Positions 18,791 to 64,000 are shown, counted from the stretch's first letter. The stretch: DNA of 64,000 nucleotides from Planctomycetota bacterium (GCA_016793245.1 JAEUHW010000351.1:5987-69986); one strand, 5' to 3'. The notes: a model not told the origin generated them from the sequence alone. A program made the numbers and translations.

Positions 18791-18986
18791 GGGGCAGAGC
18801 TTAGCCGGGAGGCGCGGCGCAGGTCGACCAAGGCGCAGGGGGCCGCGAAGCGACCCCTCCAGCAGGAGGCCCCCGGGGGACCTCGTCAGGCGCGAAAAGC
18901 GCTCCTCCCGCGCCGTGCCGGCTCAACCCTCCACCCCTCCCCGGTCGATGGTCGCACGGGCATCTCCCTCGAGCGGACTCGGCGAC

Positions 18987-21900: not shown

Positions 21901-22538
21901 CGCGCGGCTCCGAGCTCTTGCATCGAGCGCTGGATCGCAGCGCTGCGGAATCGGCGCGCCGCGGGCTCGATCACCCGATCGTCCGGCTCCACGCGCTACC
22001 GAAAGGCGCGCTCGTCGGCTTGCAGGGCGGACGCGTCGAGCGCCACGGCGCCGCTTCCACGCGCGCTCTCTGGAGCTCGGAGACGCGGCTCACGATCCTG
22101 CACCTCGTTTCCTCGGGCGATGCGGCGTGGATCTTCGGTGCCGACGGCAGCATCGTCCGTCTCGACCTCGAGAGCGGCAGCGAACGCGCGCGCTGGAAGA
22201 TCGCCAGCGCACCTGCGCAGGAGTCGACCTACGCCGCCGGACGCTTGTACATCCCGATGGCGAAGGAAGTGCTCTGCCTCGACGCCGCGGATGGACGCGA
22301 GCTCCTGCGCTGGTCGCTCGAAGGACTCCAGGTCACGGCGGCGCCGGCGGTGGATCTCGAGAGAGCTCGGCTCTTCGTCGCGACCGACAAGGGCCTCGAG
22401 GTCCTCGACCTCGAGAAGCCGCGAACCGCGTGGCGCCACGCGACGGCGAGCGCCCTCACGGCAGCGCCGCTCCTGACGCCACACGGTGTGCTCGTCGCGT
22501 TGGGCGACGGCGGGCTCGAGCTGCTCCCGCGGCGCTGA
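18987..22538 (+). CDS. large multidomain protein: N-terminal DUF4388 (PatA-like), TPR-like repeats, one TM helix, coiled coil, PEGA domain, C-terminal PQQ/BamB-like beta-propeller
   Basis: The real start MGLTGDLSKLKMGDLFQTLEGSRQVGVLKV (DUF4388 signature) lies 556 codons into ORF 17319..22538. The TM helix ALVTAAILLGVGASCLWLTAAW is at about 20362-20425. A PEGA-like segment (LRSIPSGAEVREGTQVLGLTPLPVEYDP...LIVKSEGFE) is at about 21390-21540. Repeated hydrophobic-strand/Gly-Asp turn units run to the C-terminus. Confidence 0.85.
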   Translation: MGLTGDLSKLKMGDLFQTLEGSRQVGVLKVWREGESRELFFGPQGVSLLHLATLCTDRLAERFRNAGEISAEDIASAKRHAETHGSTFGQVLAQRNLVSSEAVEEAVQEQAEELLYDMFGWTQGNFEFFDDKKPDAATIGPYVIDPLPIGPMLLEGARRIDEWGEIKRQVPDRGEVFVAAPLSAAERADLEDDEQLVIEAIDGKTDLRVLADRTLGSLFDTAKVVAALADRELVRLATLDELVSNAEIEFAQGRRENARALLDLAVDRRAPRLRRNLDQIARLYESMEEKERACDLRSYVAGQMIATECYEDARELLQQILELCPEHLNSNKRLMQVLDEIERDSAAAFAQRVRVVELLSSQRETENEARQYSGMLTAAPPRDAVLVRRAANAAMKAGTKDVALNLLHFAANVDREGGQRQRLIETYREILKLDRGNKEIAQALRQILISQQARRRRRALVTAAILLGVGASCLWLTAAWNESNAAALLQEAEELGRRDAQAALLALNQLDESYSGSMGAGEVIEAAARARQGYQRRLADEQRRKDEDSQRLLSSRLTEAGAHIDASRYQEAFPIYRELLAQTLSKGEQETIRFRIQSAIEALTQWDTRMQELLQRASPEHIARLSSKEIEALRAELVAELQRVNAASMGGLRDGLTDPAIAKLLPKQRNLLDEALFTRVGMQQVQGELLAEELGKRIEAYSRTDELENLLEEASKAERENRWGAAAELYRLLAQSSVESGLQAQFVTQAERLEKIVGQLRAIAKATEQRDFAAAVTAYQSLVEEAPDLDLRGHVRLPFLLRSIPSGAEVREGTQVLGLTPLPVEYDPFRAATLIVKSEGFEREVIQVTGFERGDATLVLRTPPLWRVPGHGPVASAPMLQGERCFVADRGGHLRALDLAQRKVIFDRVVTAEMGGLRAAPFACEKGIGVASWEGRLFELDPRDGDPRELGRLPAEGQWLGPIYTDGLVWLSRGSELLHRALDRSAAESARRGLDHPIVRLHALPKGALVGLQGGRVERHGAASTRALWSSETRLTILHLVSSGDAAWIFGADGSIVRLDLESGSERARWKIASAPAQESTYAAGRLYIPMAKEVLCLDAADGRELLRWSLEGLQVTAAPAVDLERARLFVATDKGLEVLDLEKPRTAWRHATASALTAAPLLTPHGVLVALGDGGLELLPRR

Positions 22539-47451: not shown

Positions 47452-48094
47452 CTCGATCGCCCTCGGCTCCCGGCTCGTCCTGGTCCACGCGGCTCGCGGC
47501 GCCCTCGGAGTCCGCGGGCGGCGACGAGAGGCCGCCGATCTCGAAGAGCGCGATCTCGGTCGTGCCCCAGGCGCGCCGGTCGCAGTCGCCGATCGCCGCC
47601 AGCTCGGTCGCGTCGAGCAGGTCGCGGGGATAGTGGAACGCGAGGAGCCCGGTGGCCGCGAGGCGCTCCGCGAACAGGCGCCGCGCGAGATCGAGGGTGC
47701 CGCGGCGACGCGAAGGCGAGCGCAGTTCCGAGTACGGCGGATCGAAGAACACGAGCTCGTAGCGCTCCTCCGGCGGGCGCTCGAGCTGCTCCTCGACGCG
47801 CCCGCGCACGATGCGCGAGCGCTCGCCGAAGCCGAGCGCCGCGACGTTCGCGGAGAGGCACTCGAGCGCGCTGCGATCGCGCTCGACGAAGACGCAGGAA
47901 GCCGCGCCGCGGGAGAGGGCTTCCAGACCGATGCTGCCCGTCCCCGCATAGAGGTCGAGCACGCGCGCGCCATCGACGCGGTCGCCGAGGATGGAGAAAA
48001 GTGCCTCGCGCACCCGATCCAGGAGAGGACGAGTGCGCTCCCCTGGTGGGGACGCGAGCTTCCGACCGCGAGCCGTACCGGCGATGATCCGCAT
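47441..48094 (-). CDS. rsmD: 16S rRNA (guanine966-N2)-methyltransferase RsmD
   Basis: MRIIAGTARGRKL...RPLLDRVREALFSIL...VLDLYAGTGSIGLEALSRGA...VFFDPPY. Confidence 0.88.
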   Translation of the reverse strand: MRIIAGTARGRKLASPPGERTRPLLDRVREALFSILGDRVDGARVLDLYAGTGSIGLEALSRGAASCVFVERDRSALECLSANVAALGFGERSRIVRGRVEEQLERPPEERYELVFFDPPYSELRSPSRRRGTLDLARRLFAERLAATGLLAFHYPRDLLDATELAAIGDCDRRAWGTTEIALFEIGGLSSPPADSEGAASRVDQDEPGAEGDRDAS

Positions 48095-48243
48095 GCTGCA
48101 ACGCGCAGCCCAGAGCAGGGCCGCCTACCTCGGGCACAGTAGACCACGCGCGCGGAGCCGGGCCAATTTGTGAGGAGCGGCGGCCGCCTTACGACGTAAG
48201 AGCCATACTGGACCGGCCTTCGAAGCCACCTCCCCAATCGTCG

Positions 48244-50115
48244 ATGTCCCAACGCACCCACGAGCCGGCCGGGAAGATTGCACTGAGCTTCCGGCTGCTC
48301 GTCGGCAGCAAGGAAGCTCCGCTCGCCATGCCCCTGCCGCTCGGGCGCGTGGTGACGGTCGGCAGCGATCCCTCCTGCGAGCTGCGCTTCGCGCATCCGA
48401 CGCTCGCCGGGCGCCATGCCCAGCTCGAGGCGCGCCTCGACGCGATCGCGGTCCGCGACCTGGAGGGCAGCAGCGGGACCTGGGTCGGCGAGCGGCGCAT
48501 CGGACATCCGCGGCTCGCGTACGCCGGTGAGCGCCTGCGCTTCGGCGACGTCGAGGCGCTCCTGGTCGGCGTGCCGCTGGCGGAAGACTCGCAGCGCTCG
48601 CGAGCGCTGGCCTCGCTGCTGCATCCCGACATCTGGAGCATCAGCGTTCCGCGCCTCGCCGAGCAGGAGTCGCCGGAGTTCGCCGAGGTCCTGGCCGCGG
48701 AGTTGAAGAAGGCTCCCTGGTTCGCGATCTCCGTCGCGGCACATGCGCTCGTGCTCTTCGTCGCGTGGCTGGCCTTCGCTCTGCCGCAGCGCGTCGTACC
48801 GGAAGCGCCGCAGCCGCTGCGCTTCAGTTCCGCCCCGATCGAAGAAGCTCACGACGGCGTCGACGAGCTCGTGACGGAGGAGACGATCGAAGCCGAGGCG
48901 CCGACGGAGAGCGCGAACGAAGAGACCGCCAGCGAGACGAGCGCCGAACCGCCGGACGAGCCGCTCGAGGTCGAAGAGCCCTCCAGCGGTTCCTTCGGCG
49001 CTCCGGGCATCGGCCGCTCGCCCATCGGCGACTTCGGCGAACCGCGCCTCGGACCGAGCACGAAGCGCGGACGCGGACGCGATCGCGGCTTGGAAGGCCT
49101 GCTCGGCGACGAGAAGGTGCGCGGGACCTTGCGCTCCATGCGCCAGAACGGCCTCGAAGTCGTGATGGTCTTCGATTCCACCGGAAGCATGGGCGGGATC
49201 CTCGACCAAGCGAAGCAACGCATGGACGAGATGATCTCGGTGCTCGAGATCCTGGTGCCCGGCGTGCGCGTGGGACTGGTGACCTATCGAGACCGCGGGC
49301 GCGAGGAATACGTGACGCGCGAGTGCCCGCTCACGCGCAGCCGTTATCGCCTGCGGGACTTCATCGATGGCGTGAGCGCGGGCGGCGGCGACGACATCCC
49401 CGAAGCGGTGCTCGACGGGGTCGATGCCGCATTCCGCAAGATGGACTGGTCCAAGTCGGCGTTCCGCTTCGTGACCGTGATCGGCGACGCGCCGCCCCAC
49501 AAGGGCGATCGAACCAAGGTGAAGAACCTCGTGCGCCGCTTCGCGCGCGAGCACGGCATGACCTCGATGGTCTCGACGATCTACACCGGAGGCGGCTTCG
49601 CCCGGGATCAAGAGGCGATCGACGCCTTCCGCGAGATCGCGGACGAAGGCGGTGGCGTTTTCGTGGAGCTCGAGCAGCAGGAGCGCGTGCTCCGCGAGAT
49701 CGTCGCCATGGTGTTCGGGCGCCAATTCGAGAGCGGCCTCGCGGATCTCTACCGCCACGTGCAATCGCTGCAGCGCCTGGGAGACACCGAGCGCCGTTGG
49801 ATCCAGGACCTCGACATCTCCGCGATGGTCGAGGAGGGGTTGGTCCCCACGCGCCAACGTTCGATCGCACCCGAGGTCGTCGACTCGCTGATCGGCATGG
49901 GCCGCAGCAGCGTGAAGCGCAGCGAAGTGATCGAGACGACCGTGCAGCTCCTGCAGCGCGGAGATCTCACCGAGGAGACGCTCTTCGCCGCGCGCTGGAT
50001 CCTCCGCCACATCAGCAACGGCGAGATCGACTTCGATCCGACGGCTCCGACGACGCGCCGCATCCAAGAGCTGAAGCGCCTGCGCCCTCGCGCGCGCGAT
50101 ACGAGCGGTCGCTGA
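48244..50115 (+). CDS. transmembrane FHA-vWA protein (N-terminal FHA, single TM helix, acidic linker, C-terminal vWA domain plus helical domain)
   Basis: FHA pattern (LPLGRVVTVGSDPSCELRFAHPTLAGRHAQLE...GSSGTWVGERRI...GERLRFGDV). TM helix PWFAISVAAHALVLFVAWLAFAL. vWA MIDAS motif VVMVFDSTGSMGG, plus VTVIGDAPPH. Confidence 0.85.
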   Translation: MSQRTHEPAGKIALSFRLLVGSKEAPLAMPLPLGRVVTVGSDPSCELRFAHPTLAGRHAQLEARLDAIAVRDLEGSSGTWVGERRIGHPRLAYAGERLRFGDVEALLVGVPLAEDSQRSRALASLLHPDIWSISVPRLAEQESPEFAEVLAAELKKAPWFAISVAAHALVLFVAWLAFALPQRVVPEAPQPLRFSSAPIEEAHDGVDELVTEETIEAEAPTESANEETASETSAEPPDEPLEVEEPSSGSFGAPGIGRSPIGDFGEPRLGPSTKRGRGRDRGLEGLLGDEKVRGTLRSMRQNGLEVVMVFDSTGSMGGILDQAKQRMDEMISVLEILVPGVRVGLVTYRDRGREEYVTRECPLTRSRYRLRDFIDGVSAGGGDDIPEAVLDGVDAAFRKMDWSKSAFRFVTVIGDAPPHKGDRTKVKNLVRRFAREHGMTSMVSTIYTGGGFARDQEAIDAFREIADEGGGVFVELEQQERVLREIVAMVFGRQFESGLADLYRHVQSLQRLGDTERRWIQDLDISAMVEEGLVPTRQRSIAPEVVDSLIGMGRSSVKRSEVIETTVQLLQRGDLTEETLFAARWILRHISNGEIDFDPTAPTTRRIQELKRLRPRARDTSGR

Positions 50116-50296
50116 GAAGCGGAGCAGCGATCGAGGAGACCGGCCCTCTGGTCTTCTCGCGCTTCCCGTCGTAGTGCTGCCGCTCGCTGCCAGCAGAGTC
50201 TGGCTCATGCTCCGAGACGAGCTCCCCGTGTGCAGAGATTGCAGTCGGGGCTCGGCTTGCCTACGGTACGCGATCCAAGAGCGTACCGAGGTCTTC

Positions 50297-52714
50297 ATGA
50301 GCTGCGACGACGTGCCGGCCCTGCAGCGCCTGCCGCCCGAGAGGTTGCGATGGCGCTGTCCGCGCGAATGGGTGCCGTTCTCCGACACGAGAGAAGTCGC
50401 TGCCGAGCCCGGCATCGTCGGTCAAGACGAAGCCATCGAGACGCTGCGCTACGGCCTCGAGATCGACGGCCCCGGGCAGAACGTCTTCGTGCGCGGGCTC
50501 GACAGCAGCGGCCGTTCGACGCTGGTGCAACGCCTCCTGGAAGAGCTGGCGCCGACCTGTCAGCTCACCTGCGATCGCGCGTACGTGCCGGACTTCGATG
50601 CGCCGGACCGCCCGCGTTGGGTCGAGCTGCCGCGCGGCAGCGGCGCGCTGTTCGCGCGCGCGATGCGGGGCTTCGCGCGCCGCGTGCGCCGCGATCTACC
50701 GGTCGTGCTGCGCGGGGAAGCTCTCGCGGCGGAGACCGCGCGCTTCGAATCCGACTGGCAACGCCGCGCCGGCGAGCTCGAGCGCGGCTTCCAGGCCGAG
50801 ATCGCGCCGAGCGGACTCTCGCTGGTCAGGATCGAGCAGGAGGGCGGCGCACAACTCGCGATGGTGCCCACGCACGAAGGGCGAGCGCTGGGGCTCGAGG
50901 AGCTTGCGGCTCGGGAGCGCTCGGGTCCGCAAGGGGCCGCGGAGGTACAGCGCTGGCAATCGGCCTTGATCGAGAAGCGCGCGCGCTTCCAGGAGTTCGT
51001 CCTGGATCTGCAGGAGCTGCACGAGGAGCGCGCCGCGGCGCTGCAGGTGATGCGCGCGGAGGCCGCGCGCGCCGCGATCGAGCGCTACGTCGAGCGCCTC
51101 CGCAAGCGCTTCCCCCACCCGAGCGTCCAGCGCTATCTCGACGGCGTCGTGCGCGACGTGATCGAGAATCGCCTCGACGAGCTCGACGCCGAGGAGGACT
51201 TCACGGAGGACTACCTGCCGAACCCGATCCAAGCACGCGAGCGCGAAGCGGATTGCCCGATCGTCGTGGAGAGCATCCCCAGCGTGGCGAATCTGCTCGG
51301 CAGCATCGAGAGCGAAGCGCTCGCCGGCGGCGGCAACTACAGCGATCACCGCTCGATCCGCGGCGGCGCGCTGCTGCGCGCCGATGGCGGCTTCCTCATC
51401 CTGGAAGCGCGCGAGCTCCTGGCGGAGCCGGAGTCGTGGCGCGCGCTCGTCCGCGCGCTGCGGAGCGGCAAGGTCGAGATCCTGCCGCGCGAGGGCCATC
51501 CCGGACCGCTGGTGAAGCCCGAGCCGATCCCGATCCGCACGAAGGTGATCCTGATCGGCGATCCGGAGCTCTATCAGGTCCTCGACGCCGAGGACGCCTA
51601 CTTCCCCTCGCTGTTCAAGGTGCTCGTCGACTTCGAAGGGCATATCCCGCGCGACGCGCGCGGCGCTCGCCAATACGCCGGCGTGATCGCGCGCTTCGCG
51701 CAGGATGCGCAGCTCCGCCCCTTCACCTGGTGCGCCGTCGCGCGCCTCATCGAACACGGCTCGAGCCTGGCCGCGTGCGAAGGCCTCTCCACTCGCCTCG
51801 GGCGCATCGCGGATCTCATGCGCGAGACGGACTTCTGGGCGCGGCGCGCCGGCGCCGAACGCTGCGAACGCGAGCATGTGCGCACCGCGCTGCGACAGGC
51901 GCGTCGACGAGCCGATCTACCGGCCCGCCGCTTTCGGCGCATGGTGAAGGACGGCTTGCTCACCATCGAGGTGCGCGGCCGGCGCGAAGGACAGATCAAC
52001 GGGCTCGCGACGCTGAGCGCCGGCTCCCTGCTCTACGGCATCCCCGCGCGGATCACCGCCAGCGTCGGTCCCGGCGAGCGCGGCGCGATCGACATCGAAG
52101 GGCTCTCGGAGCTCGGCGGCTCCATCCATACGAAGGGCTTCCACATCCTCCAGGGATTGCTCCAGAACCTGCTGCGCGTACATCACCCGCTGGCCTTCAC
52201 GGCGTCGCTCGCCTTCGAGCAGACCTATGGCGGGATCGACGGGGATTCGGCTTCGGCGGCGGAGATCTGCTGCTTGATCAGCGCGCTCTCGGAGGTGCCG
52301 CTGCGCCAGGATCTCGCGCTCACGGGCGCCGTGGACCAGCACGGGCGCATCCAGGCCATCGGAGCCGTGAACGAGAAGATCGAGGGCTTCTTCGATGTCT
52401 GCGTCGAGCTCGGAGCGCTGGAGCCGACGAGCGCGAACCACGTGCGCGGCGTCGTGATCCCCGCCGCGAACGTGGCCGAGCTCATGCTGCGCGAGGAGGT
52501 CGTCGAAGCGTGCGCGCGAGGCGCCTTCGCGATCTACGCCGCGAGCGACGTGCGCGGCGTCCTCGAGCTCTTCACCGACTTGTCGTTCGGGACCTGCTCC
52601 GCCGATGCCGCCCCCGAGCCGGAGAGCCTGCTCGCGCGAGCGCGCCGCCGAGCCGAGGAGCTCTGGCGCGCGAGCCGCAGCGTGGAATTGGACCGGCCGC
52701 GCAACCGCACGTAG
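50297..52714 (+). CDS. Lon-family protease of the LonC/COG1067 type (AAA-like domain with degenerate Walker motifs and a coiled-coil insertion; C-terminal S16 Ser-Lys protease domain)
   Basis: Start at MSCDDVPALQRL. It has GQDEAIETLRYGL and a Walker-A-like VRGLDSSGRST (Arg where Lys is expected), followed by an insertion of about 170 aa that appears helical by eye. The Walker-B-like motif is GGFLILEAREL. The protease motifs are GIDGDSASAAEICCLISAL (Ser) and AVNEKIEGFF (Lys). Confidence 0.88.
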   Translation: MSCDDVPALQRLPPERLRWRCPREWVPFSDTREVAAEPGIVGQDEAIETLRYGLEIDGPGQNVFVRGLDSSGRSTLVQRLLEELAPTCQLTCDRAYVPDFDAPDRPRWVELPRGSGALFARAMRGFARRVRRDLPVVLRGEALAAETARFESDWQRRAGELERGFQAEIAPSGLSLVRIEQEGGAQLAMVPTHEGRALGLEELAARERSGPQGAAEVQRWQSALIEKRARFQEFVLDLQELHEERAAALQVMRAEAARAAIERYVERLRKRFPHPSVQRYLDGVVRDVIENRLDELDAEEDFTEDYLPNPIQAREREADCPIVVESIPSVANLLGSIESEALAGGGNYSDHRSIRGGALLRADGGFLILEARELLAEPESWRALVRALRSGKVEILPREGHPGPLVKPEPIPIRTKVILIGDPELYQVLDAEDAYFPSLFKVLVDFEGHIPRDARGARQYAGVIARFAQDAQLRPFTWCAVARLIEHGSSLAACEGLSTRLGRIADLMRETDFWARRAGAERCEREHVRTALRQARRRADLPARRFRRMVKDGLLTIEVRGRREGQINGLATLSAGSLLYGIPARITASVGPGERGAIDIEGLSELGGSIHTKGFHILQGLLQNLLRVHHPLAFTASLAFEQTYGGIDGDSASAAEICCLISALSEVPLRQDLALTGAVDQHGRIQAIGAVNEKIEGFFDVCVELGALEPTSANHVRGVVIPAANVAELMLREEVVEACARGAFAIYAASDVRGVLELFTDLSFGTCSADAAPEPESLLARARRRAEELWRASRSVELDRPRNRT

Positions 52715-55584: not shown

Positions 55585-56604
55585 TCATTTTTTTTCGGTC
55601 TCCCGCGCGGCTCCCTCGCGCTCTCGCAACGCGCGCGCGAGAAACGCCGAGCCGAACCAAGCCGCGATCACGAGGTAGATCCCGTAGGACCAGAAGCGCC
55701 AGAGGAGGATCAGTGATGCCGCGGCCTCCGCGGGCCACGCGCCCCCCGCGGCCATCGGCAGTCCCGCTTCGAACAGTCCGCTCCCTCCGGGAGTCGGAAA
55801 GACGAACGCGACGACTTGCACGACGTGCTGGACGACCAGCAACGCCGCCCAGGAGACCTCGAGCCCGAGCGTCCACGCCGCCGTCGGCAGCACGGCGTAG
55901 ATGCCGAGCCACTCGATCGCCGTGAGGAAGAGCATCCCCACATGAAAGCTCGGCGGAGCTCGGCGCAGCTCGCCGATCGCCGCAGCCGCTCGCAGGAGGG
56001 GCGGGAGCGCGCGGCGCCGCAGGCGCGGCGTCGGCGCGAGCAGCACACCGATCCAGCGCACGGCGAGGCGGGGAGCCCCGACGAGCAGCGATCCGAACAC
56101 GAGCGCCCCGGCGCTCAGACCGAGCGCCGTGAGCAGGAGCCCCAAGGGCAGCTCCCCCCCGACGATGCGCACGTACACCGGCAGCACGGCCGGAACGGTC
56201 ACCGCGAAGAGGAGCGCATCCAGAGCGGTGGTGTACGCGGCGACCGCCATCGCGCGAGGTCCGGGCACGCCGCTGCGCCAGAGATACCAGAGATAGGCCG
56301 GCGAAGCGCCCGAAGCCGCGGGCGTCACCGCGGCGCCACAGATCCCGGTGAGCTGGAGCTCGAAGCTCGAGCGCCAACCGAAGGGGCTCCCCCAGCGCGC
56401 GAGCAACCAGCGGAACTTGAGCGTGGCAGAGCCCCAGCGCAACCCGAGCGCCCCGGCGATCCCCAGCAGTCCGAGCGCGCTCGGGGCGAGGAGGCGCGCG
56501 AATCCTCCGTCGTCGCCATAGTGCAAGACGACGAAGACGGCAGCCCCCGCCGCACAGAGGAGCGGCAGGAGGAGCGGCTGGTTGGCCAGACGCCTCGAGC
56601 TCAT
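55585..56604 (-). CDS. UPF0104 / lysylphosphatidylglycerol-synthase-TM-region-like (flippase-like) membrane protein
   Basis: Start at MSSRRLANQPLLLPLLCAAGAAVFVVL, 357 codons into ORF 55585..57675. It has about 8 TM helices, a conserved-looking PTPGGSGLFEAG motif, and ends ...ETEKK. Confidence 0.75.
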   Translation of the reverse strand: MSSRRLANQPLLLPLLCAAGAAVFVVLHYGDDGGFARLLAPSALGLLGIAGALGLRWGSATLKFRWLLARWGSPFGWRSSFELQLTGICGAAVTPAASGASPAYLWYLWRSGVPGPRAMAVAAYTTALDALLFAVTVPAVLPVYVRIVGGELPLGLLLTALGLSAGALVFGSLLVGAPRLAVRWIGVLLAPTPRLRRRALPPLLRAAAAIGELRRAPPSFHVGMLFLTAIEWLGIYAVLPTAAWTLGLEVSWAALLVVQHVVQVVAFVFPTPGGSGLFEAGLPMAAGGAWPAEAAASLILLWRFWSYGIYLVIAAWFGSAFLARALREREGAARETEKK

Positions 56605-56861
56605 CCTGTCCTCAAGCGCAAGCCCGACCGTTTGGCGGCCTCGGGCGCGCGCCGATCGGAGGGGAGCAAAAAAAACGCGGAGCCTTCGTCGCCGACGCGG
56701 GATCCCGGTGTACAGGAACCCCACCCCGGAGTCGCAGCGCGGCACACCGACCGCGAAGGAACCCAGGGTACGAAATCCGAGCCGCGAAATCCTGACCGAC
56801 CTGCCTCCGCGATCTGCACTCGGTCGATCACCTAGGAACCCTTGCCGGGCTCGAAGCCAGG

Positions 56862-58025
56862 ATGAGCCAACACCTCCTCGATCGCTGCAGCTCCGCGGAA
56901 GCGCTGGTGGCCGCGAGAATCCTCGAAGGCGCGGATGCGCGCGACGAGGCCGCGGAGCTGTTGCGCCTCGCTCTGGCCGAACGCGGGGAGAACCATCCCG
57001 ACGCGCGTCGCGCGCGCTGGCTGCTCGCCCTGGCGACGGTGCTCGGCTCGGCCGCGCCGGTGCGTCTCGGAGCGGAGCTGCGCGAGGCCCTCGAAGGCGC
57101 GCGCGACGAACGGCCCGTCGAGGGCACGGCCCTGGACGCGGCGCTCCAGCGAGCGCGGAACGTGCTCGACGCCGAGGAAGCGCTGGACGATGCTCGCGCC
57201 GCGACCGAGAGCGGGGAGTTCGATCGCTGCGAAGCCTCGCTCTCGCTGGCCCTCGCCGATGCCGGCTCGTGCGGATTGCGAGAAGAAGCTCGCCGCAGCG
57301 AGCGCGCGGCGGAGATTCTCGCCCTCCGCCGAGAAGAGACCCGCGTCGACAGCTTGCTCCGCGATGCTCGCGAGCGCTGGGCCGCCGCCGGAGAAGCGGC
57401 GCGCGCTCACGCCGTGGCGCTGCGCCTAGGCGACAGAGCCTGGAAACGGGGAGAGCTGGCGCTGGCCACGCGCACCTACGATGAAGCTCGCGCGATCGCG
57501 CGAGCCGAGACACACCCGCTCTCCGAGGTCTCCGCGCTGCGCCGCCTGCTCGGCCTCGCCGCGCAGCGCCGCGACCCGCGCGCGACGCAGCGCCTCGGCG
57601 AAGAGCTGGAACTCCGACTCGCGGCGCTGCCGAGCGAAGAACAGCGCGAGCGCGCCGTATCGCACTGGGTCGCATTCAGCGTGTTGCGCCGGGCCGGAGA
57701 TCGCGCGCGCGCTTTGCTGGCGTTGAAAGCGGCGTTGAGCGAAGCCGAGATCGCCCGCGACATGCCGCTCGCTTGGCTGGCCGCGGCACAGCTCGGCGAA
57801 CCCCTCCCCACCGAGCTCGTCCGGCGCTTGCAGCGCCCGCCGATCGACGCGGAGCAGCTCTGCGAGAGCGCCTCGCGAGCCGCGGTCGACGGAGCGGATC
57901 CCGATCTGCAACTCGGCCTCTGGGAAGGAGCGATGCGCTGGAACGACGCGCATCAGGACGCCGATCCGGCGCTCCGCGCGCGCTGCGAACGCGCGATCGC
58001 CGAGCTCGCCTTCCTCGCGATCTGA
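56862..58025 (+). CDS. hypothetical all-helical (TPR-like) protein, 387 aa
   Basis: Ala/Leu/Glu/Arg-rich helical repeats with hydrophobic periodicity and several Trp/Cys residues. It is more protein-like than the overlapping minus-strand ORFs. No family recognised. Confidence 0.55.
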   Translation: MSQHLLDRCSSAEALVAARILEGADARDEAAELLRLALAERGENHPDARRARWLLALATVLGSAAPVRLGAELREALEGARDERPVEGTALDAALQRARNVLDAEEALDDARAATESGEFDRCEASLSLALADAGSCGLREEARRSERAAEILALRREETRVDSLLRDARERWAAAGEAARAHAVALRLGDRAWKRGELALATRTYDEARAIARAETHPLSEVSALRRLLGLAAQRRDPRATQRLGEELELRLAALPSEEQRERAVSHWVAFSVLRRAGDRARALLALKAALSEAEIARDMPLAWLAAAQLGEPLPTELVRRLQRPPIDAEQLCESASRAAVDGADPDLQLGLWEGAMRWNDAHQDADPALRARCERAIAELAFLAI

Positions 58026-58245: not shown

Positions 58246-59193
58246 ATGCTGACCATCTCCCTGCTCGCACTCTGCTCGCTCTTGCCCCAGGACCAGTGCC
58301 CGGCGGCCGCCTCGAAGGCCGTTCTCACGAAGCTCCCTTCGACCGCGCAGAACGCGGAGAAGGACATCGTGGCGACGGCGATCGACGCGGGCTCGTTCCC
58401 GACGCTCGTCGCAGCGCTGAAGGCGGCCGACCTCGTCGGCGCGCTGCAGGCCAAGGGCCCGTTCACGGTCTTCGCTCCGACCGAAGCGGCCTTCGCCAAG
58501 CTGCCGAAGGGCACCGTCGAGAACCTGCTGAAGCCCGAGAACAAGGCGCAGCTCCAGGCCATCCTGAAGTACCACGTGCTCGCCGGTAAGGTCGATGCCG
58601 CCGCGGCGATGAAGACGAGCTGCGCCGCGACCCTCGAGGGTCAGCGCTGCACGATCACCACGAAGGACGGCAAGGTGATGATCGATGGCGCGAACGTGGT
58701 GAAGGCCGACATCGCGTGCAGCAACGGCATCATCCACGTCATCGACACGGTGATCCTGCCCTCCTCGAAGGACCTCGTCGAAGTCGCCGTGGGCGCGGGC
58801 TCGTTCCAGACGCTCGCCGCCGCGCTGAAGGCCGCAGACCTCGTCGACGCGCTGAAGGGCCCGGGGCCGTTCACGGTGTTCGCTCCGACCGACGAAGCGT
58901 TCGCCAAGCTCCCGAAGGGCACCGTCGAGAACCTGCTGAAGCCCGAGAACAAGGCGCAGCTCCAGGCCATCCTGAAGTACCACGTCGTCTCGGGCCGCAT
59001 CTACTCCGACGCCGCGCTCGCCGCTGGCAAGGCGCAGACCCTGCAGGGCTCCGCGATCACCATCGCGGTGAAGAACGAGCAAGCCTGCGTGAACGACGCG
59101 AAGCTGGTGAAGCTCGACATCCAGGCCAAGAACGGCGTGATCCACGTCATCGACACGGTCATCCTGCCGCCCGCCGCCGGCGATAAGCACTGA
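58246..59193 (+). CDS. secreted protein with two tandem fasciclin (FAS1) domains
   Basis: Signal peptide ([13 protein letters not shown]). FAS1 motifs appear twice ([39 protein letters not shown]; [13 protein letters not shown] / [13 protein letters not shown]). Confidence 0.9.
58504..58577 (+). repeat. 74-nt exact intragenic repeat, copy 1 (FAS1 domain 1)
   Basis: CCGAAGGGCACCGTCGAGAACCTGCTGAAGCCCGAGAACAAGGCGCAGCTCCAGGCCATCCTGAAGTACCACGT is identical to 58912..58985. The offset is 408 nt (136 codons). Confidence 0.85.
58912..58985 (+). repeat. 74-nt exact intragenic repeat, copy 2 (FAS1 domain 2)
   Basis: Identical by eye to 58504..58577. The flanking DNA is similar but diverged. Confidence 0.85.
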
Positions 59194-60697
59194 TCGAACG
59201 AGCGCTCCGAGCGCGCACGAAGCACGCCGCGAGCCAGGCCACGGCCGCTGCGAGCACGAGCCAACGTCCGAGAGGACGCTGCTCGCGCTCGAAGCGGCCG
59301 TCGCTCGTTTCGGAGCGCGAGCTGCCGCGCAGCGCAGCGCTGGTCTCGCCGAGATCGAGCGGAGCACCGCGCGTCCGTTCCACCTCGGGCGCGCGCAGAC
59401 GCGGACGCACGGCATCCACCAGCAGCGCGCAGAGCAGGGGCAGCTCGGCGCGCGCGGAGGCGCTCTGCGCGAGCTCGAGCGCGTCGAGCGCACAGTGCAG
59501 CTCGCCTTCCTCGAGCGCGATCGCCAGGCGCCCGCTCGGCGTAGCACGCGCGAGCGGGGTTCCGCGATCGAGCTCGCGCAGCGGCCACGGAGCAGGTGCG
59601 AGGCGCTGCCAGAGAGCGTCGCTCTCGGCATCCTCCCAGCGCAGGCTCTCGACGCGCGCTTCCCCGCGCCCCGCGCCGAAGCGCAGCGCGCAGCTCGGGT
59701 CCTCCGATGCCGGACGAGCGGCCCCGTCGATCAAGAGCTCGATCGACGTTCCGGCTCCGAAGTCCAGCCGCTCGTCGGCCTCGAACGCGCGCTGCAGCGC
59801 CGGCGGGAGTGCGCGCGCTACCGCGGAGATCGGTCGCAGATCGAGCTGGAGAGCGACCACGTCGTCCAGCGCGATCTCATCGGCGCCGCTCGCGGAGACG
59901 AGGCGCAGCGCACGCCATGCGGGATCCACCTCGAGGCGCAATGCGCGACGCTCGCCGGGCTCCAGCGCGAATGCGGAGAGTGTTCGATCGCCGGGCTCGA
60001 CGCGCACCTCGAGCTCGCGGCGCTCGACTCCGGCGCCGGCCGCGACGAGCCAGAGCTCGCGCTCTGCGGAGAAGCTCGCCGAGACCCAGCCCGCATTGCG
60101 CTGCAGCGGCGCTCCGACCGCGAAGAACGCCGCCGCGCGCGGGAGTTCCTCCGGCTCGCGATCCCCCACCCACCAGAGACGCTCCGCGCCGAGCTCGCCG
60201 AGCGTCGGACCTTCCTCCGCACCGGCGAGACGCGTCTCCTCGATGCGCTCGAGCGCGCGCACGAGCTCGGTCGCGGTGCCTCGTGCACCGAGCTCCGCTG
60301 CGGGCCAGAGCCAGAGCTCGCAAGAGGTCTCTCGCGGCTCCGCGTCGAGCTCTCGAGCGAGGCGCTCCTTCGCCTCCGCGAGTCGCGTCGCGCCGCCCGC
60401 GGATCGCGCGCTCATGCTGGCGCTGCGATCGAGCCAGATGCGCAGCGGGAGCGGTTGCTCGCGGACGAGCGCCGGCGCGGCGAGAGCCGCGATCGCCGCG
60501 CTCACGGCGAGCAAGGCGAGCCACGCGTGCAAGGGCAAGCGCCGCCGCTGCTGCGTCGGTCGAGCGGGGAGCTCGCGCGGCCAGAAATCGAGCGCCGGCG
60601 CGCGGCGAGAGCGCGGGCGCTCCCCCGTCGCGAGCCACCACGCCAGCGGCGCGAGACCCAGCAGCAGCCAGAGGAAGTGCGGCTCGGCGAAGCTCAC
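59159..60697 (-). CDS. BatA-like protein: aerotolerance-regulator N-terminal TM domain + vWA-like MIDAS + long C-terminal region ending in a TM helix
   Basis: GTG start at 60697 ([22 protein letters not shown] is a BatA_N-type motif). There is a second TM helix, a MIDAS-like [14 protein letters not shown], and a C-terminal TM helix [20 protein letters not shown] overlap with the DUF58 stop, and a 35-nt convergent overlap with the fasciclin gene. Confidence 0.7.
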
Positions 60698-61587
60698 CGC
60701 GCGCTCCGCGAGCGCTCGAAGCGCACGAGCTCCGCGAGATCCTGCGCCGGCTCGGAGAGCTCGCGCAGCGGCAGGCGATGGCGCTCGGCGAGTTGGCGCA
60801 AGCGCTCCGCGTGCGCGGCGAAGCGCTGCGCATAGCCGGCGAGCGCCACCTCGGGATCGCTCGCGATCCAGCGCTCTCCGGTCTCGGCGTCGATCCACTC
60901 GACGGGCTCCGTGAGCGAAGGCGAGCGCTCCTCCGGATCGAGGATGCGCAGCAGGCGCGGATGCAATGCGCGCGCGCTGAGCTGCTCCGAGAACTGCGCC
61001 CAACCGGCGAGGGCATAGAGATCCGAGAGGATCCAAGCGCGCGGCGCGCGCGCGAGCGAACGCCGCTCCAGCAGACGCAGTCGTGCGCGATGCAGCTCGT
61101 CCTCGTCGGCCGTCGCTCTCCAGCGTTCGAGCGTCGCGAGCAACTCGCGCGCTCCCGCGAGCCGTTCCAAGCGCACGGGCCCGAGCGCCTCCTCCGCGCC
61201 GAGAGGGATGATCTCGGCGCTCGCGCCGCGCGCGGCGAGCGCGAGGGCGAGAGCCGCGGCGATCCGCAGCGCGCGGTCCACCTTCGGCTCCGCGCCGAAA
61301 TCCATGGAGGCGCTGAGGTCGACCAGCACGAGCTCGCGCTGCGCTTCCTGGATGCGCTGCACCTTGAGGAACGGCTTCTTCGTGCGCGCGAAGACCTGCC
61401 AGTCGACGCGCGCCAAGTCATCGCCGGGCCGATAGGCGCGATGCTCTTCGAACTCGAGTCCGGCGCCGTGGCGCCCCGCGCGCTCGCCCGTGCCGCCGGC
61501 TCCGCGCCGCGGGAGCGCGCCCCAGGGCAGCGCGAGCACGCGATCGACGAAGTCGGGAGGGAAGCGCACGAGGTTCTGGGCGCTCAA
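60694..61587 (-). CDS. DUF58 family protein (vWA-like; usual partner of MoxR ATPases)
   Basis: DUF58 hallmark GAGLEFEEHRAYRPGDDLARVDWQVFARTKKPFLKV, then LVLVDLSASMDFG. The start is uncertain. I propose the TTG at 61587, which forms a TTGA overlap with the upstream stop. The only upstream ATG (61719) would add 44 junk-like codons. Confidence 0.75.
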   Translation of the reverse strand: MSAQNLVRFPPDFVDRVLALPWGALPRRGAGGTGERAGRHGAGLEFEEHRAYRPGDDLARVDWQVFARTKKPFLKVQRIQEAQRELVLVDLSASMDFGAEPKVDRALRIAAALALALAARGASAEIIPLGAEEALGPVRLERLAGARELLATLERWRATADEDELHRARLRLLERRSLARAPRAWILSDLYALAGWAQFSEQLSARALHPRLLRILDPEERSPSLTEPVEWIDAETGERWIASDPEVALAGYAQRFAAHAERLRQLAERHRLPLRELSEPAQDLAELVRFERSRSAR

Positions 61588-62939
61588 GCCCAGTAGCGCG
61601 GTACCTCGAAGGCGATCGGCTTGCCGCGCGGCCGACCGAGCTTCTTCCCCTTCTCCATCACGCGCTCTCCGCGGAGGAAGATGCACTCGATGCCGGTGCG
61701 CAGGCGCAACCCCGCCCACGGTGAGAAGTCGGACGCCGAAGGCAGCTCCGCCGCATCGATCACGCGCTCTTCTCCGGGCGGCGCGAGCACGACGAGATCG
61801 GCGTCATTGCCGATCTCGATCTCGCCCTTCTGCATGAGGCAGAAGGTCTCCGCCACGTGATGCGTCGCCGCTTCGAGCAGCTTCGGCAGCAAGATGCCTT
61901 CCCGGCGCGAGATGTAGTGCAGGAGCGGATAGAAGAGATCGACGCCCGGGACTCCTTCCAGCGCCTCCGCGTACGGCACGCGCTTCTGCGCCGCCGAGCA
62001 GGGCTGATGACCGCTGGTCACGATCTCGATCGCGCCGGAGTCGACGCCTTCCAGCAGCCGCCGCCGATCGCGCGGCCCCTTGATCGAAGGCCAGACCACG
62101 AGCTCGTTGCCGCGCGCAGCGACGTCGTCATGAGTGAACAGCAGGTACTGCGCACACGTCGATCCGGAGACCGGCAAGCCGTGTCGCTTCGCTTCGTCGA
62201 TGAGGTCGACGCCGCGCGCGGTCGACACCTGGAAGAAGTGCACTTCGCACTCCGCCTCGGCCGCCATCTCGATCGCGGCGGCGATCGCCACGGTCTCCGC
62301 GGCCGCCGAGCGCCGCAGATGATGCGCGCTGGCCTCGGCGGGATGCGCGCGCCCGTCCGAGGCGAGGATCGCCGGATCCTCGGCCTGTACGACGACTTGC
62401 CGACCCGCCGCGCCCGCGGCTTGGAAGAGCTCGCGCATCAGGCCGTGATCCCAGCTCCGCTCGCCGAGATTCGCCCCATACATGACGAGGTGGAAGCCCG
62501 GCGCGAGCGGCGCCATCTCGCGCAGATGCGAGGCCGAGCGCTCGACCAAGCTCGGATACAGCCCGAAGTCGACGTGCGAACGTCCGCTCGCGCGCGCGAT
62601 GCGCGCGGAGTAGCTCGAAGCATCGACGCTGTACGGCGGGCTCGCGCTGATCTCGAGCACGCTCGTGACCGCCCCGTGTAGCGCGCCGGACGACCCGCTC
62701 GTCCAGCCTTCGCGCCGCGCGGCCTCGCTGCGACCGACGGGCTCGTGGAACGCCACCTGCGCATCGACGAGGCCGGGGATGATCTCGCGTCCCCGCGCAT
62801 CGTAGTGCTCCTCGTCGGCGCTCGGCGTGTAGAGGCCGTGAGGAGCGAGCTCTTGGATGACGCCCTGGTTGTCCCAGACGACATCGAGCTCGCGGAAGTG
62901 GCCTTGGAAGAAGACGCGGCCACCCGTGAGAAGACCCAT
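61584..62939 (-). CDS. dihydroorotase/allantoinase-like cyclic amidohydrolase-fold protein with apparently degenerate metal-binding motifs (pseudo-enzyme candidate)
   Basis: 451 aa with overall amidohydrolase layout (IPGLVDAQVAF..., GFHLVMYG, VVVQAEDP, EVHFFQVST, IVTSGHQP, GNDADLVVL). At each position where I expect a His, Lys or Asp metal ligand, a different residue is present. See the findings. Confidence 0.8.
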   Translation of the reverse strand: MGLLTGGRVFFQGHFRELDVVWDNQGVIQELAPHGLYTPSADEEHYDARGREIIPGLVDAQVAFHEPVGRSEAARREGWTSGSSGALHGAVTSVLEISASPPYSVDASSYSARIARASGRSHVDFGLYPSLVERSASHLREMAPLAPGFHLVMYGANLGERSWDHGLMRELFQAAGAAGRQVVVQAEDPAILASDGRAHPAEASAHHLRRSAAAETVAIAAAIEMAAEAECEVHFFQVSTARGVDLIDEAKRHGLPVSGSTCAQYLLFTHDDVAARGNELVVWPSIKGPRDRRRLLEGVDSGAIEIVTSGHQPCSAAQKRVPYAEALEGVPGVDLFYPLLHYISRREGILLPKLLEAATHHVAETFCLMQKGEIEIGNDADLVVLAPPGEERVIDAAELPSASDFSPWAGLRLRTGIECIFLRGERVMEKGKKLGRPRGKPIAFEVPRYWA

Positions 62940-63006
62940 CGATCGCGCTCCGCGAAGCTGGAGTTCCGAAAGCCCAGACGAGATACGGCCCAGACGAGAT
63001 CTGGCG

Positions 63007-64000
63007 CTAGCCGCCAGAACGGGCGCGATGCAAGGCCACGGCAGTGAGATCGTCGTCGACCTTCTCGGCCGTGCTGCGCACGGCTTGCACGACGGCTTCG
63101 AGCGCGACCTTCGCGGACTTGCCCGCGCACTGTCGCAGCACGTTCTTCACGCGCTCCATCCCGAAGAGCTCCTCCGAGCTCACGTGCGACTCCGGGATCC
63201 CGTCGGTCAGACAGAAGAGCAGGTCGCCGGGCTCCAACATCACCGGCACACCGGTCTCGTAGGTCGCGCTGTCGATGACGCCGAGCATGAAGCCCGTCGC
63301 GGCGAGCTCCTCCACGCGCCCGTCGGCGCGCATGAGGAGCGGGGCTGGATGGCCGGCGTTCACGAAATCGATACGCCCGCTCGGCGGGTCGAAGATCGCC
63401 GCGAACATGGTCATGAAGTGCTCGTCGCTCGAGGCCGCGCAGAGGTCCTGGTTCAACCAGGTGATCACGCTCGAGAGATCCTGGCAGACGCGGAGGTAGG
63501 AGCGCAGGCTCGCGCGCGCGGTCGAGGTGAGCAGCGCCGGCCCGATGCCGTGCCCGGAGACGTCCCCGATCACGAGCGCCCAGCGGCCGTCCTCGAGAGC
63601 GATGAAGTCGTAGGTGTCTCCGCTCGCCTCTTCGGCCGGCTCGCACCAACCGTGGAGGTCGTAGCCTCGGATCGCCGGCGCCTTCGTGGGCAGGAGCCCG
63701 CGCTGGATCTGACCGGCGATGCGCAGCGACTGCTCGAGGCGCGTCTTCTCCAGCGAATCGAGCACGAGCCGCGCGTTGGTGATCGCGATCGCGATCTGCC
63801 GCGACAGCGCGTCGAAGAACGCGAGGTCGCTGCGCGAGAACTCGCGCGTCGCCGCGCGCGAATCGACGAGCAGCACGCCGAGCAGGTCGTCGCCGACGGT
63901 GAGCGCCGTGCACATCACGGCGCGGAGCTTCAGGTCGTAGACCGAGCGCGAGAGGTCCAGCGCTTCGGCGTCCGAGCGCACCATCGTGCGCACCGGGCGG
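63007..64000 (-). CDS. GAF domain + PP2C-type (SpoIIE/RsbU-like) serine phosphatase; the 5' end lies beyond the right edge
   Basis: C-terminal part of a GAF domain (LGVLLVDSRAATREFSRSDLAFFDALSRQIAIAITNARL), then a SpoIIE-type PP2C domain (AGQIQRGLLP...GDTYDF...VIGDVSGHGIGPALL...TMFAAIFD...NAGHPAPLL...TDGIPE...DDLT). The frame is open to position 64000. Confidence 0.85.
   Translation of the reverse strand, partial: RPVRTMVRSDAEALDLSRSVYDLKLRAVMCTALTVGDDLLGVLLVDSRAATREFSRSDLAFFDALSRQIAIAITNARLVLDSLEKTRLEQSLRIAGQIQRGLLPTKAPAIRGYDLHGWCEPAEEASGDTYDFIALEDGRWALVIGDVSGHGIGPALLTSTARASLRSYLRVCQDLSSVITWLNQDLCAASSDEHFMTMFAAIFDPPSGRIDFVNAGHPAPLLMRADGRVEELAATGFMLGVIDSATYETGVPVMLEPGDLLFCLTDGIPESHVSSEELFGMERVKNVLRQCAGKSAKVALEAVVQAVRSTAEKVDDDLTAVALHRARSGG

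Follow-up and report, generated by a model that had tools for sequence, protein, structure and literature searches.

Which protein stands beside a DUF58 protein when no MoxR ATPase is encoded nearby? Known operons place MoxR beside DUF58 and von Willebrand factor A (vWA) proteins (PMC5700661). In a 2025 review, what DUF58 does and how it relates to MoxR are still described as unclear (PMC12067865), and the function of DUF58 is likewise given as unknown in PMC5700661. The question is raised by a 64,000-nucleotide (nt) stretch of DNA from a Planctomycetota bacterium (GCA_016793245.1, JAEUHW010000351.1:5987-69986), which is called the window here. An original prediction had placed three minus-strand genes at 59159-62939, and a check with hidden Markov models confirmed that these are real. 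They encode a dihydroorotase (DHO)-family protein (Pfam Amidohydro_1, 33.7 bits), a DUF58 protein (88.5 bits) and a BatA-like protein (BatA_N, 35.7-39.6 bits). The upstream neighbour was also correctly named as a GAF-SpoIIE/PP2C phosphatase, cut by the window edge (Pfam). The cassette formed by these genes is a real, conserved, MoxR-less arrangement that is specific to a group of Planctomycetota, and its DHO-family protein in the window is a pseudoenzyme (pseudo-DHO) that may act as a scaffold or adaptor.

The conservation of the arrangement in relatives was confirmed by a synteny survey, in which PP2C, DHO-family, DUF58 and BatA_N-like genes were found in at least eight Planctomycetota contexts, none with MoxR. 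The succession of DHO-family, DUF58 and BatA_N-like genes is present in the window and in loci L004, L001, L005, L086, L088/L089, L090 and L091. The full order of GAF-PP2C, DHO-family, DUF58 and BatA_N-like (420-534 amino acids (aa)) genes was seen in L086/L087, L088/L089, L090 and L091, which carry the DHO-family proteins P0024, P0025, P0026 and P0027, respectively. Loci L002 and L003 end within or just past DUF58, and L003 shows PP2C, DHO and DUF58. The PP2C gene immediately precedes the DHO-family gene in L001, L002, L003, L004, L005, L086, L088, L090, L091 and L092. The distance between the two ranges from -16 to +172 nt, and from -16 to +24 nt in L086, L088, L090 and L091. The cassette junctions measure -23 to +47 nt, most of them being 4-nt overlaps; a single junction, in L086, reaches 105 nt. 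Identity to the window proteins is 44-55% for PP2C, 34-47% for DHO, 20-35% for DUF58 and 21-28% for the BatA-like proteins. The PP2C gene had been described as the next gene upstream, which is right, but it was missed as a member of the cassette, and the operon was said to be headed by the amidohydrolase gene; in relatives the GAF-PP2C gene is part of the conserved cassette and stands first in it.

A divergent STAS gene, outside the window, stands upstream in L001, L002, L005, L086, L090, L091 and L092. The PP2C with its sensor domain (GAF plus SpoIIE) and the adjacent STAS gene correspond to a partner-switching pair of the RsbU/RsbV type, and no RsbW-type HATPase_c kinase or anti-sigma factor was found among the called genes of L001, L005 and L086-L092. 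Four divergent loci (L001 2-715, L005 1-912, L091 1634-2689 and L093 2865-3959) have an McsB-like gene at a distance of two to six genes on the upstream side of the cassette; its product belongs to the ATP:guanido phosphotransferases, among which are protein arginine kinases. The recurrence is a hint of a larger conserved block.

The predicted overlap of the DUF58 stop with the GTG start of the BatA-like gene (GTGA, 4 nt) is seen in the sequence, and the 4-nt overlap is kept in L004, L001, L005, L086, L088, L090 and L091. The TTGA proposed to join the amidohydrolase stop to the DUF58 start is present as well, but TTG is not conserved as a start and is CTG in L004. At the five orthologous junctions compared, every DUF58 protein starts just 5' of a conserved RFP(P/A/T/K)(D/E/N)F(V/I/L)DR motif. 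The conserved start in the window is GTG 61569 (M-RFPPDFVDR), 14 nt past the amidohydrolase stop, which matches L004, L005, L001, L002 and L003 and is judged from these alignments to be more likely than TTG. The NCBI annotation of the DUF58 gene (60694-61587) gives 297 aa from TTG, compared with 291 aa for the JADKAF01 orthologue. A DUF58 start elsewhere with an independent promoter had been named as evidence that would count against coupling. The start is indeed shifted to GTG 61569, yet the coupling holds and no room is left; a separate promoter is unlikely because the genes are too close with either start. In the 67 nt that separate the PP2C stop from the start of pseudo-DHO (62940-63006, minus strand), neither a sigma-70-like promoter nor a terminator was predicted by the promoter and terminator scan. 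An Rfam scan gave no match.

The pseudo-DHO gene (61584-62939, minus strand) encodes a 451-aa protein directly upstream of DUF58, in the usual MoxR slot, and its predicted cyclic-amidohydrolase fold was supported by Pfam and by alignment to PDB sequences. The homology to solved allantoinases, hydantoinases and dihydroorotases (DHOases) is full-length (E = 1.5e-31 to 8HFD over residues 43-429; 77 PDB sequences matched). In the alignment to E. coli allantoinase (3E74/8HFD), the metal ligands HHKHHD are changed to QAHQQG, and all six are replaced. The HxH motif is replaced by Q61-x-A63 (codons 61-63, Q-V-A, at 62751-62759 on the minus strand, aligned to 3E74/8HFD and to cassette relatives with HVHFREPG), the carboxylated Lys by H150, the two other His by Q185 and Q237, and the Asp by G310. 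The substrate-binding Arg, Asn and His are gone as well, the protein having AFHEP, ISASPP and SGHQPC in place of the HFREPG, VQNNxP and TDHAPH of cassette relatives. NCBIfam scores stay below every cut-off (NF002668, the best match, 212.6 against 452; allantoinase, 210.7 against 357.85; TIGR00857, 181.3 against 279.05). On this alignment the window protein is a catalytically dead pseudoenzyme, which cannot be a hydrolase because the binuclear metal centre and the substrate-binding residues are lost. The name allantoinase was rejected despite the best PDB matches, since the cassette relatives carry the DHOase-type motif HxHxREPG.

The ligands were compared in 170 sequences, comprising the window protein, 20 earlier matches and the best matches of an exhaustive profile search of 1.84 billion representatives; a first metagenome scan with the pseudo-DHO alignment had found no relatives. 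The HHKHHD set is present in 134 of the 170. The degenerate window clade (QAHQQG or HAHQQG), together with P0004/P0024 (QRSR[VC]D), its sister at 46% identity, makes up only two 50%-identity clusters, and five of the six ligand positions differ between the subclades QAHQQG and QRSR[VC]D. The exhaustive search also returned other cyclic-amidohydrolase homologues with degenerate ligands, namely P0130 (AREHRG), P0041 (HHKFPG) and P0169 (RHKHPG). The 883-aa P0059, considered as a PP2C-DHO or PyrB-DHO fusion, was rejected as an unrelated M20 peptidase-amidohydrolase fusion.

Among the genes tested, pseudo-DHO is under the strongest purifying selection. Its ratio of nonsynonymous to synonymous substitution (dN/dS, Nei-Gojobori method) is 0.057, 0.109 and 0.099 against L004, L005 and L002, respectively, with dS near saturation for L002. 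These values are lower than those of PP2C (0.13-0.16), two neighbouring genes (0.18-0.19), DUF58 (0.31-0.42) and the BatA-like gene (0.35-0.55), and a decaying pseudogene was rejected on the pseudo-DHO dN/dS of 0.06-0.11. Between the two pseudo-subclades, identity is only 22% in the former active-site segments (residues 60-120 and 301-340), compared with 69% for residues 1-59. The pseudo-clade has 45 clade-specific residues, including F444, E445, R448, Y449 and W450. The newly gained clade-specific conservation falls within the N-terminal beta-sandwich and a C-terminal tail, F-E-x-P-R-Y-W, which is missing from intact relatives, and the loops of the former active site have decayed.

The DHO-family proteins P0025, P0026, P0027, P0028, P0030, P0031 and P0032 keep HHKHHD together with the DHOase-type motifs HVHFREPG, VQNNxP and TDHAPH; P0025, P0027, P0028, P0030 and P0032 pass TIGR00857 (pyrC_multi), and none passes an equivalog model. 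A neighbour-joining tree (no bootstrap) sets these DHO-family proteins apart from an allantoinase-like outgroup, unites the window clade with P0004/P0024 as monophyletic and keeps P0033 separate. P0033 (L092 6001-7290, GCA_040758315.1; ligands HSAREG) is a second, apparently independent degenerate DHO, beside which polA is convergent. Because P0033 is placed apart from the window clade and P0004/P0024 in the tree, the sequences suggest that the metal site has been lost at least twice.

The absence of MoxR from the window, as originally predicted, was confirmed by three scans that agree. No open reading frame (ORF) in any frame of the window contains the Walker-B DEINR-type motif (DE[IVLM]NR), and tblastn with eight diverse MoxR proteins from survey loci gave no match in the window or in L001-L005 (best E = 0.023). 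The AAA_3 domain is absent (Pfam) from 21 large window ORFs upstream of 53 kb with high G+C at third codon positions, among which the sole AAA+ protein is a Lon-like protease (50075-52711). The search for MoxR covered the window, the loci of relatives and the 10 kb on either side in a related 7.06-Mb contig. A MoxR gene just past the right edge, which had been named as the finding that would overturn the prediction, was not found within about 9 kb in the syntenic relatives L004, L001 and L005. The corresponding side of these loci carries the divergent STAS gene, an M61 peptidase, a NUDIX protein, a hydrolase, a gene without assignment and the McsB-like kinase. The AAA_3 domain is also absent from the Pfam lists of L086-L093, and no MoxR was found within 2-10 kb in cassette loci from several assemblies and metagenomes. 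The 879-aa Lon-like protease (plus strand; AAA_32, LonB lid, LonC helical and Lon_C domains) is overlapped at its start by 38 nt by the gene of a 675-aa FHA and vWA protein (48088-50112, plus strand). The window thus contains another AAA+/vWA pairing of a different kind, for which PADLOC gave no match.

How unusual the loss of MoxR is was assessed in 80 metagenome loci encoding relatives of the window DUF58 at 26-40% identity, 49 of which had enough upstream sequence. MoxR is directly upstream of DUF58 in 23 of the 49 and separated from it by one gene in 15; in the remaining 11 it is missing within at least 3.3 kb, and the upstream genes are unrelated housekeeping genes, none of them AAA_3. 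The absence of MoxR is a minority state (about 22%) and not rare by itself. The lack of MoxR near the DUF58/BatA-like pair is real, but as an oddity in its own right it is weak. The feature specific to the cassette is the conserved, coupled DHO-family gene in the MoxR slot, and an amidohydrolase-like gene was found in none of the 80 other DUF58 loci. A gap of about 1.5 kb between MoxR and DUF58 was seen in 13 of the 15 loci with one intervening gene (L008, L012, L017, L018, L019, L022, L027, L038, L046, L056, L059, L074 and L080); in the inspected loci L018, L022, L038 and L059 the gap encodes a membrane protein of about 485 aa. The gene after DUF58 in L008, L018, L022, L038 and L059 encodes a BatA_N-VWA protein of about 1450 aa, and the arrangement looks like an operon subtype of its own.

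The DUF58 gene (60694-61569, minus strand; 291 aa from GTG 61569, or 297 aa from the alternative TTG 61587; Pfam DUF58 88.5-89 bits) encodes a protein that is modelled as a vWA fold with an intact metal ion-dependent adhesion site (MIDAS) motif. D84 and S88 are invariant and S86 is nearly invariant in 89 homologues (gene segment 61306-61320, minus strand), all cassette DUF58 proteins keep Dx[ST]xS, and many homologues also match VWA_2 or VWA_CoxE. The best structural matches of the AlphaFold2 model (predicted local distance difference test (pLDDT) 88.9, predicted template modelling score 0.83) are the BatB vWA domain 3IBS, the MDN1 MIDAS domain 8QL1, the B. fragilis aerotolerance protein 4JDU and NorD in NorQD 9QHG. 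A PDB sequence search with the DUF58 profile gave nothing significant.

The BatA-like gene (59159-60697, minus strand, GTG start) encodes a 512-aa membrane protein with BatA_N and a divergent vWA domain. Pfam profile positions 1-77 of BatA_N match residues 1-75 from the proposed GTG, and TIGR02226 is matched as well. The vWA domain claimed for this protein was undetected by Pfam, NCBIfam and PDB sequence search, but it is supported by profile-profile comparison and by the MIDAS residues. The hhalign comparison of the window clade with the BatA_N+VWA_2 family gave a probability of 99.1% (E = 5e-19) over residues 1-342, and an alignment of 27 family sequences shows D90, S92, S94 and D179 to be invariant, the motif D90-R-S-A-S94 lying at 60416-60430 (minus strand). 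An AlphaFold2 model built on a 3-sequence alignment had a pLDDT of 39 and was not used. A hydrophobic helix near the C-terminus (residues about 477-494; 59216-59269, minus strand) can be read, followed by a basic tail. The length of 512 aa and the C-terminal transmembrane helix had been considered atypical, a view that the survey does not support: most DUF58-linked relatives measure about 580-720 aa and another class about 1450 aa, and the C-terminal helix is common to the family. The gene that follows DUF58 specifies a long protein with a DxSxS motif close to residue 95 in 33 of 38 survey loci, and all 24 members scanned match both BatA and VWA_2. By these profile matches, the BatA-like protein is classed as a short, divergent member of the common DUF58-linked BatA_N+VWA family.

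The proposed explanation is a MoxR-independent operon of a GAF-PP2C phosphatase, a DHOase-family protein, a cytoplasmic DUF58 protein of vWA/MIDAS type and a BatA_N-vWA membrane protein, whose large domain would lie in the periplasm according to its predicted topology and the positive-inside rule. The pseudo-DHO would be a non-catalytic scaffold or adaptor subunit, its partners would be the two MIDAS proteins from a putatively shared mRNA, and it would fill the cytoplasmic-partner position held by MoxR in canonical Bat/MRP operons. The PP2C/STAS pair may supply phospho-regulation. A probability of about 0.4 is given to the role of pseudo-DHO as scaffold or adaptor with DUF58 and BatA as most likely partners. 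These partners are favoured because the translational coupling survives divergence into the twilight zone and because MIDAS domains are protein-binding modules. The wider proposal, in which DUF58 and BatA form a MoxR-independent envelope module with the (pseudo)dihydroorotase as dedicated cytoplasmic partner under GAF-PP2C/STAS phospho-control, is doubtful.

Several observations weigh against the scaffold reading. The physical association of pseudo-DHO, DUF58 and BatA is putative, and both DUF58 and the BatA-like protein evolve fast. The BatA-like proteins of the window clade, L086 and L088 still have the MIDAS motif, but those of L090 and L091 have lost it. Locus L093 (P0031) has DHO and DUF58 with a cut ORF and without PP2C, and L092 (P0033) has STAS, PP2C and the degenerate DHO without DUF58 or BatA; the PP2C-DHO link therefore outlasts the DUF58 link. 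The recurrence of the McsB-like gene means that part of the conservation may be inherited block synteny. Because the intact-site cassette relatives resemble ordinary PyrC (HVHFREPG, several passing TIGR00857), the DHO-family gene may also be a housekeeping gene that is only co-transcribed.

The strongest rival makes pseudo-DHO a PyrC'-type structural subunit of class A aspartate transcarbamoylase (ATCase), with a second, active DHOase elsewhere and with DUF58 and the BatA-like gene co-transcribed and functionally unrelated. It is compatible with a scaffold role, the two not being mutually exclusive, and it is a genuine possibility that still falls well short of probable. The intact-ligand cassette homologues with DHOase motifs and the five proteins that pass TIGR00857 (P0025, P0027, P0028, P0030 and P0032) agree with it, as do the very strong purifying selection and the apparent independent losses of the metal site (at least two), which are expected if a structural role alone is needed. 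It also has a precedent in the inactive pDHO required by Pseudomonas ATCase (PMC7053772). However, no ORF of the window or of L001-L005 combines the pyrB motifs SxRTR and HPxQ, no ATCase family occurs in the Pfam lists of L086-L093, and the window protein, at 181 bits, is below the TIGR00857 cut-off of 279. The new clade-specific surfaces would not be required by an ancestral ATCase interface, and the DUF58/BatA translational coupling across 20-30% identity would be left unexplained. An ordinary Bat/MRP system served in trans by a MoxR encoded elsewhere, with the DHO-like gene as an unrelated insertion into the operon, is unlikely. The family normally works with MoxR, which is upstream in 38 of the 49 survey loci, and the slot tolerates other genes, one gene intervening in 15 of these 38; yet all cassette loci examined are without MoxR within 2-10 kb, the DHO-family gene is not a recent insertion, its position being conserved across deep divergence, and the upstream genes of the 11 other MoxR-less DUF58 loci are unrelated.

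The dead DHOase might instead be a small-molecule sensor that binds carbamoyl-aspartate, dihydroorotate or a similar ureide in its old pocket and signals to PP2C and STAS as a partner-switching pair. Of all the links, the adjacency of PP2C and DHO persists longest, being kept in L092 in the absence of DUF58 and BatA, and the divergent STAS gene in L001, L002, L005, L086, L090, L091 and L092 would suit this idea. It is nevertheless highly improbable: the former pocket is the least conserved part within the pseudo-clade (22%), five of six ligand positions differ between subclades, the substrate-binding Arg and Asn are lost, and the loci have no RsbW-type kinase. Chance adjacency or an annotation artefact without any operon can practically be dismissed. 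The promoter and terminator scans were uninformative, which leaves it some room, but the same order and overlaps recur in at least eight independent contexts, so that it is contradicted by synteny; all three genes have dN/dS below 1, and the Pfam matches are significant.

The scaffold reading can be set beside several known systems. The BatI/MRP-type operons (Bacteroides fragilis BatI, Borrelia bb0170-0176, Mycobacterium moxR1-Rv1480-Rv1481 and Rhizobium RL3499-3502) share with the cassette a DUF58 protein with MIDAS, followed with a start/stop overlap by a BatA_N and vWA inner-membrane protein, and the DUF58 model matches the BatB vWA domain. Unlike these operons, the cassette loci are without nearby MoxR, the window has no BatB, BatC, BatD or BatE genes, DHOase-family and GAF-PP2C genes lie upstream in the window locus, and the BatA-like vWA is too divergent for Pfam. 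PyrC'/pDHO is the inactive dihydroorotase subunit of class A2 ATCase (Pseudomonas) or the pDHO domain of fungal Ura2. The window DHOase homologue is likewise without zinc ligands yet under selection, and its close relatives resemble active DHOases of the multifunctional complex type, whereas the window gene is not beside pyrB, sits in a PP2C-DUF58-BatA operon and scores below the TIGR00857 cut-off. RavA-ViaA with LdcI, NorQ-NorD and CbbQ-CbbO are AAA+/vWA pairs that are dedicated to one enzyme and depend on a MoxR-class ATPase. As in these pairs, a MIDAS/vWA protein is genetically tied to one enzyme-fold protein in the cassette, and NorD is among the structural neighbours of DUF58; in contrast to them, the window locus has no linked MoxR-class ATPase and its enzyme-fold protein is catalytically dead.

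The Bifidobacterium PFNA cluster encodes the Ser/Thr kinase Pkb2, FN3, MoxR, DUF58 and transglutaminase proteins (PMC12067865). It resembles the cassette in the clustering of DUF58 with a Ser/Thr phospho-signalling enzyme (PMC12067865) and differs in its kinase, its MoxR and its lack of a DHOase-family gene, the window locus having a PP2C phosphatase and no MoxR and belonging to a different phylum. No paper naming DUF58 together with dihydroorotase was found in the literature searched, and DUF58 is not treated in a 2026 preprint on DUF interactions. The arrangement is a variation on the Bat/MRP theme that includes a PyrC'-like pseudoenzyme, and the mechanism given above is proposed for it.

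The cassette is bounded in the window by two further features. The 3' part of the GAF-PP2C (SpoIIE-type) Ser/Thr phosphatase gene occupies 63007-64000 (minus strand; Pfam SpoIIE 161.6 bits plus partial GAF); its 5' end is beyond the window edge, and orthologues are 436-484 aa. A convergent gene with two fasciclin domains (58246-59193, plus strand; Pfam Fasciclin 266 bits) closes the operon, sharing 35 nt with the 3' end of the BatA-like gene; the same neighbour occurs in L004. The G+C content of the window is about 70%. The BatA-like protein is 100% identical to MBL8900294.1, from a metagenome-assembled genome (MAG) named 'Planctomycetes bacterium' (88,389-bp contig). An exact-sequence look-up of the amidohydrolase-like and BatA-like window proteins returned no record. 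Among species representatives, the closest is contig JADKAF010000001.1 (7.06 Mb) of a Planctomycetota MAG, of which 21 kb are collinear with the window at 81-88% nucleotide identity. No defence-system match was found by PADLOC among the cassette proteins. Elsewhere in the window, LPG_synthase_TM is matched only in the C-terminal half of a long ORF at 55585-57675 (minus strand), which overlaps a 387-aa ORF (56862-58025, plus strand) without Pfam match, and a 1784-aa ORF at 17184-22535 (plus strand) carries DUF4388 and a C-terminal PQQ-like beta-propeller.

DUF58 and BatA are very widespread, and a MoxR-less cassette with one specific protein offers a concrete, testable partner candidate. The pseudo-DHO is a natural experiment, in which catalysis has apparently been lost at least twice and the gene of the same operon has stayed strongly constrained, which points to a non-catalytic role. 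If pseudo-DHO is only a PyrC'-like ATCase subunit, the class A2 ATCase organisation would extend to Planctomycetota, a modest result. If the scaffold reading is true, pseudo-DHO would be the first defined non-AAA+ partner for DUF58, and the fold of a pyrimidine-pathway enzyme would have been recruited as a scaffold for MIDAS proteins.

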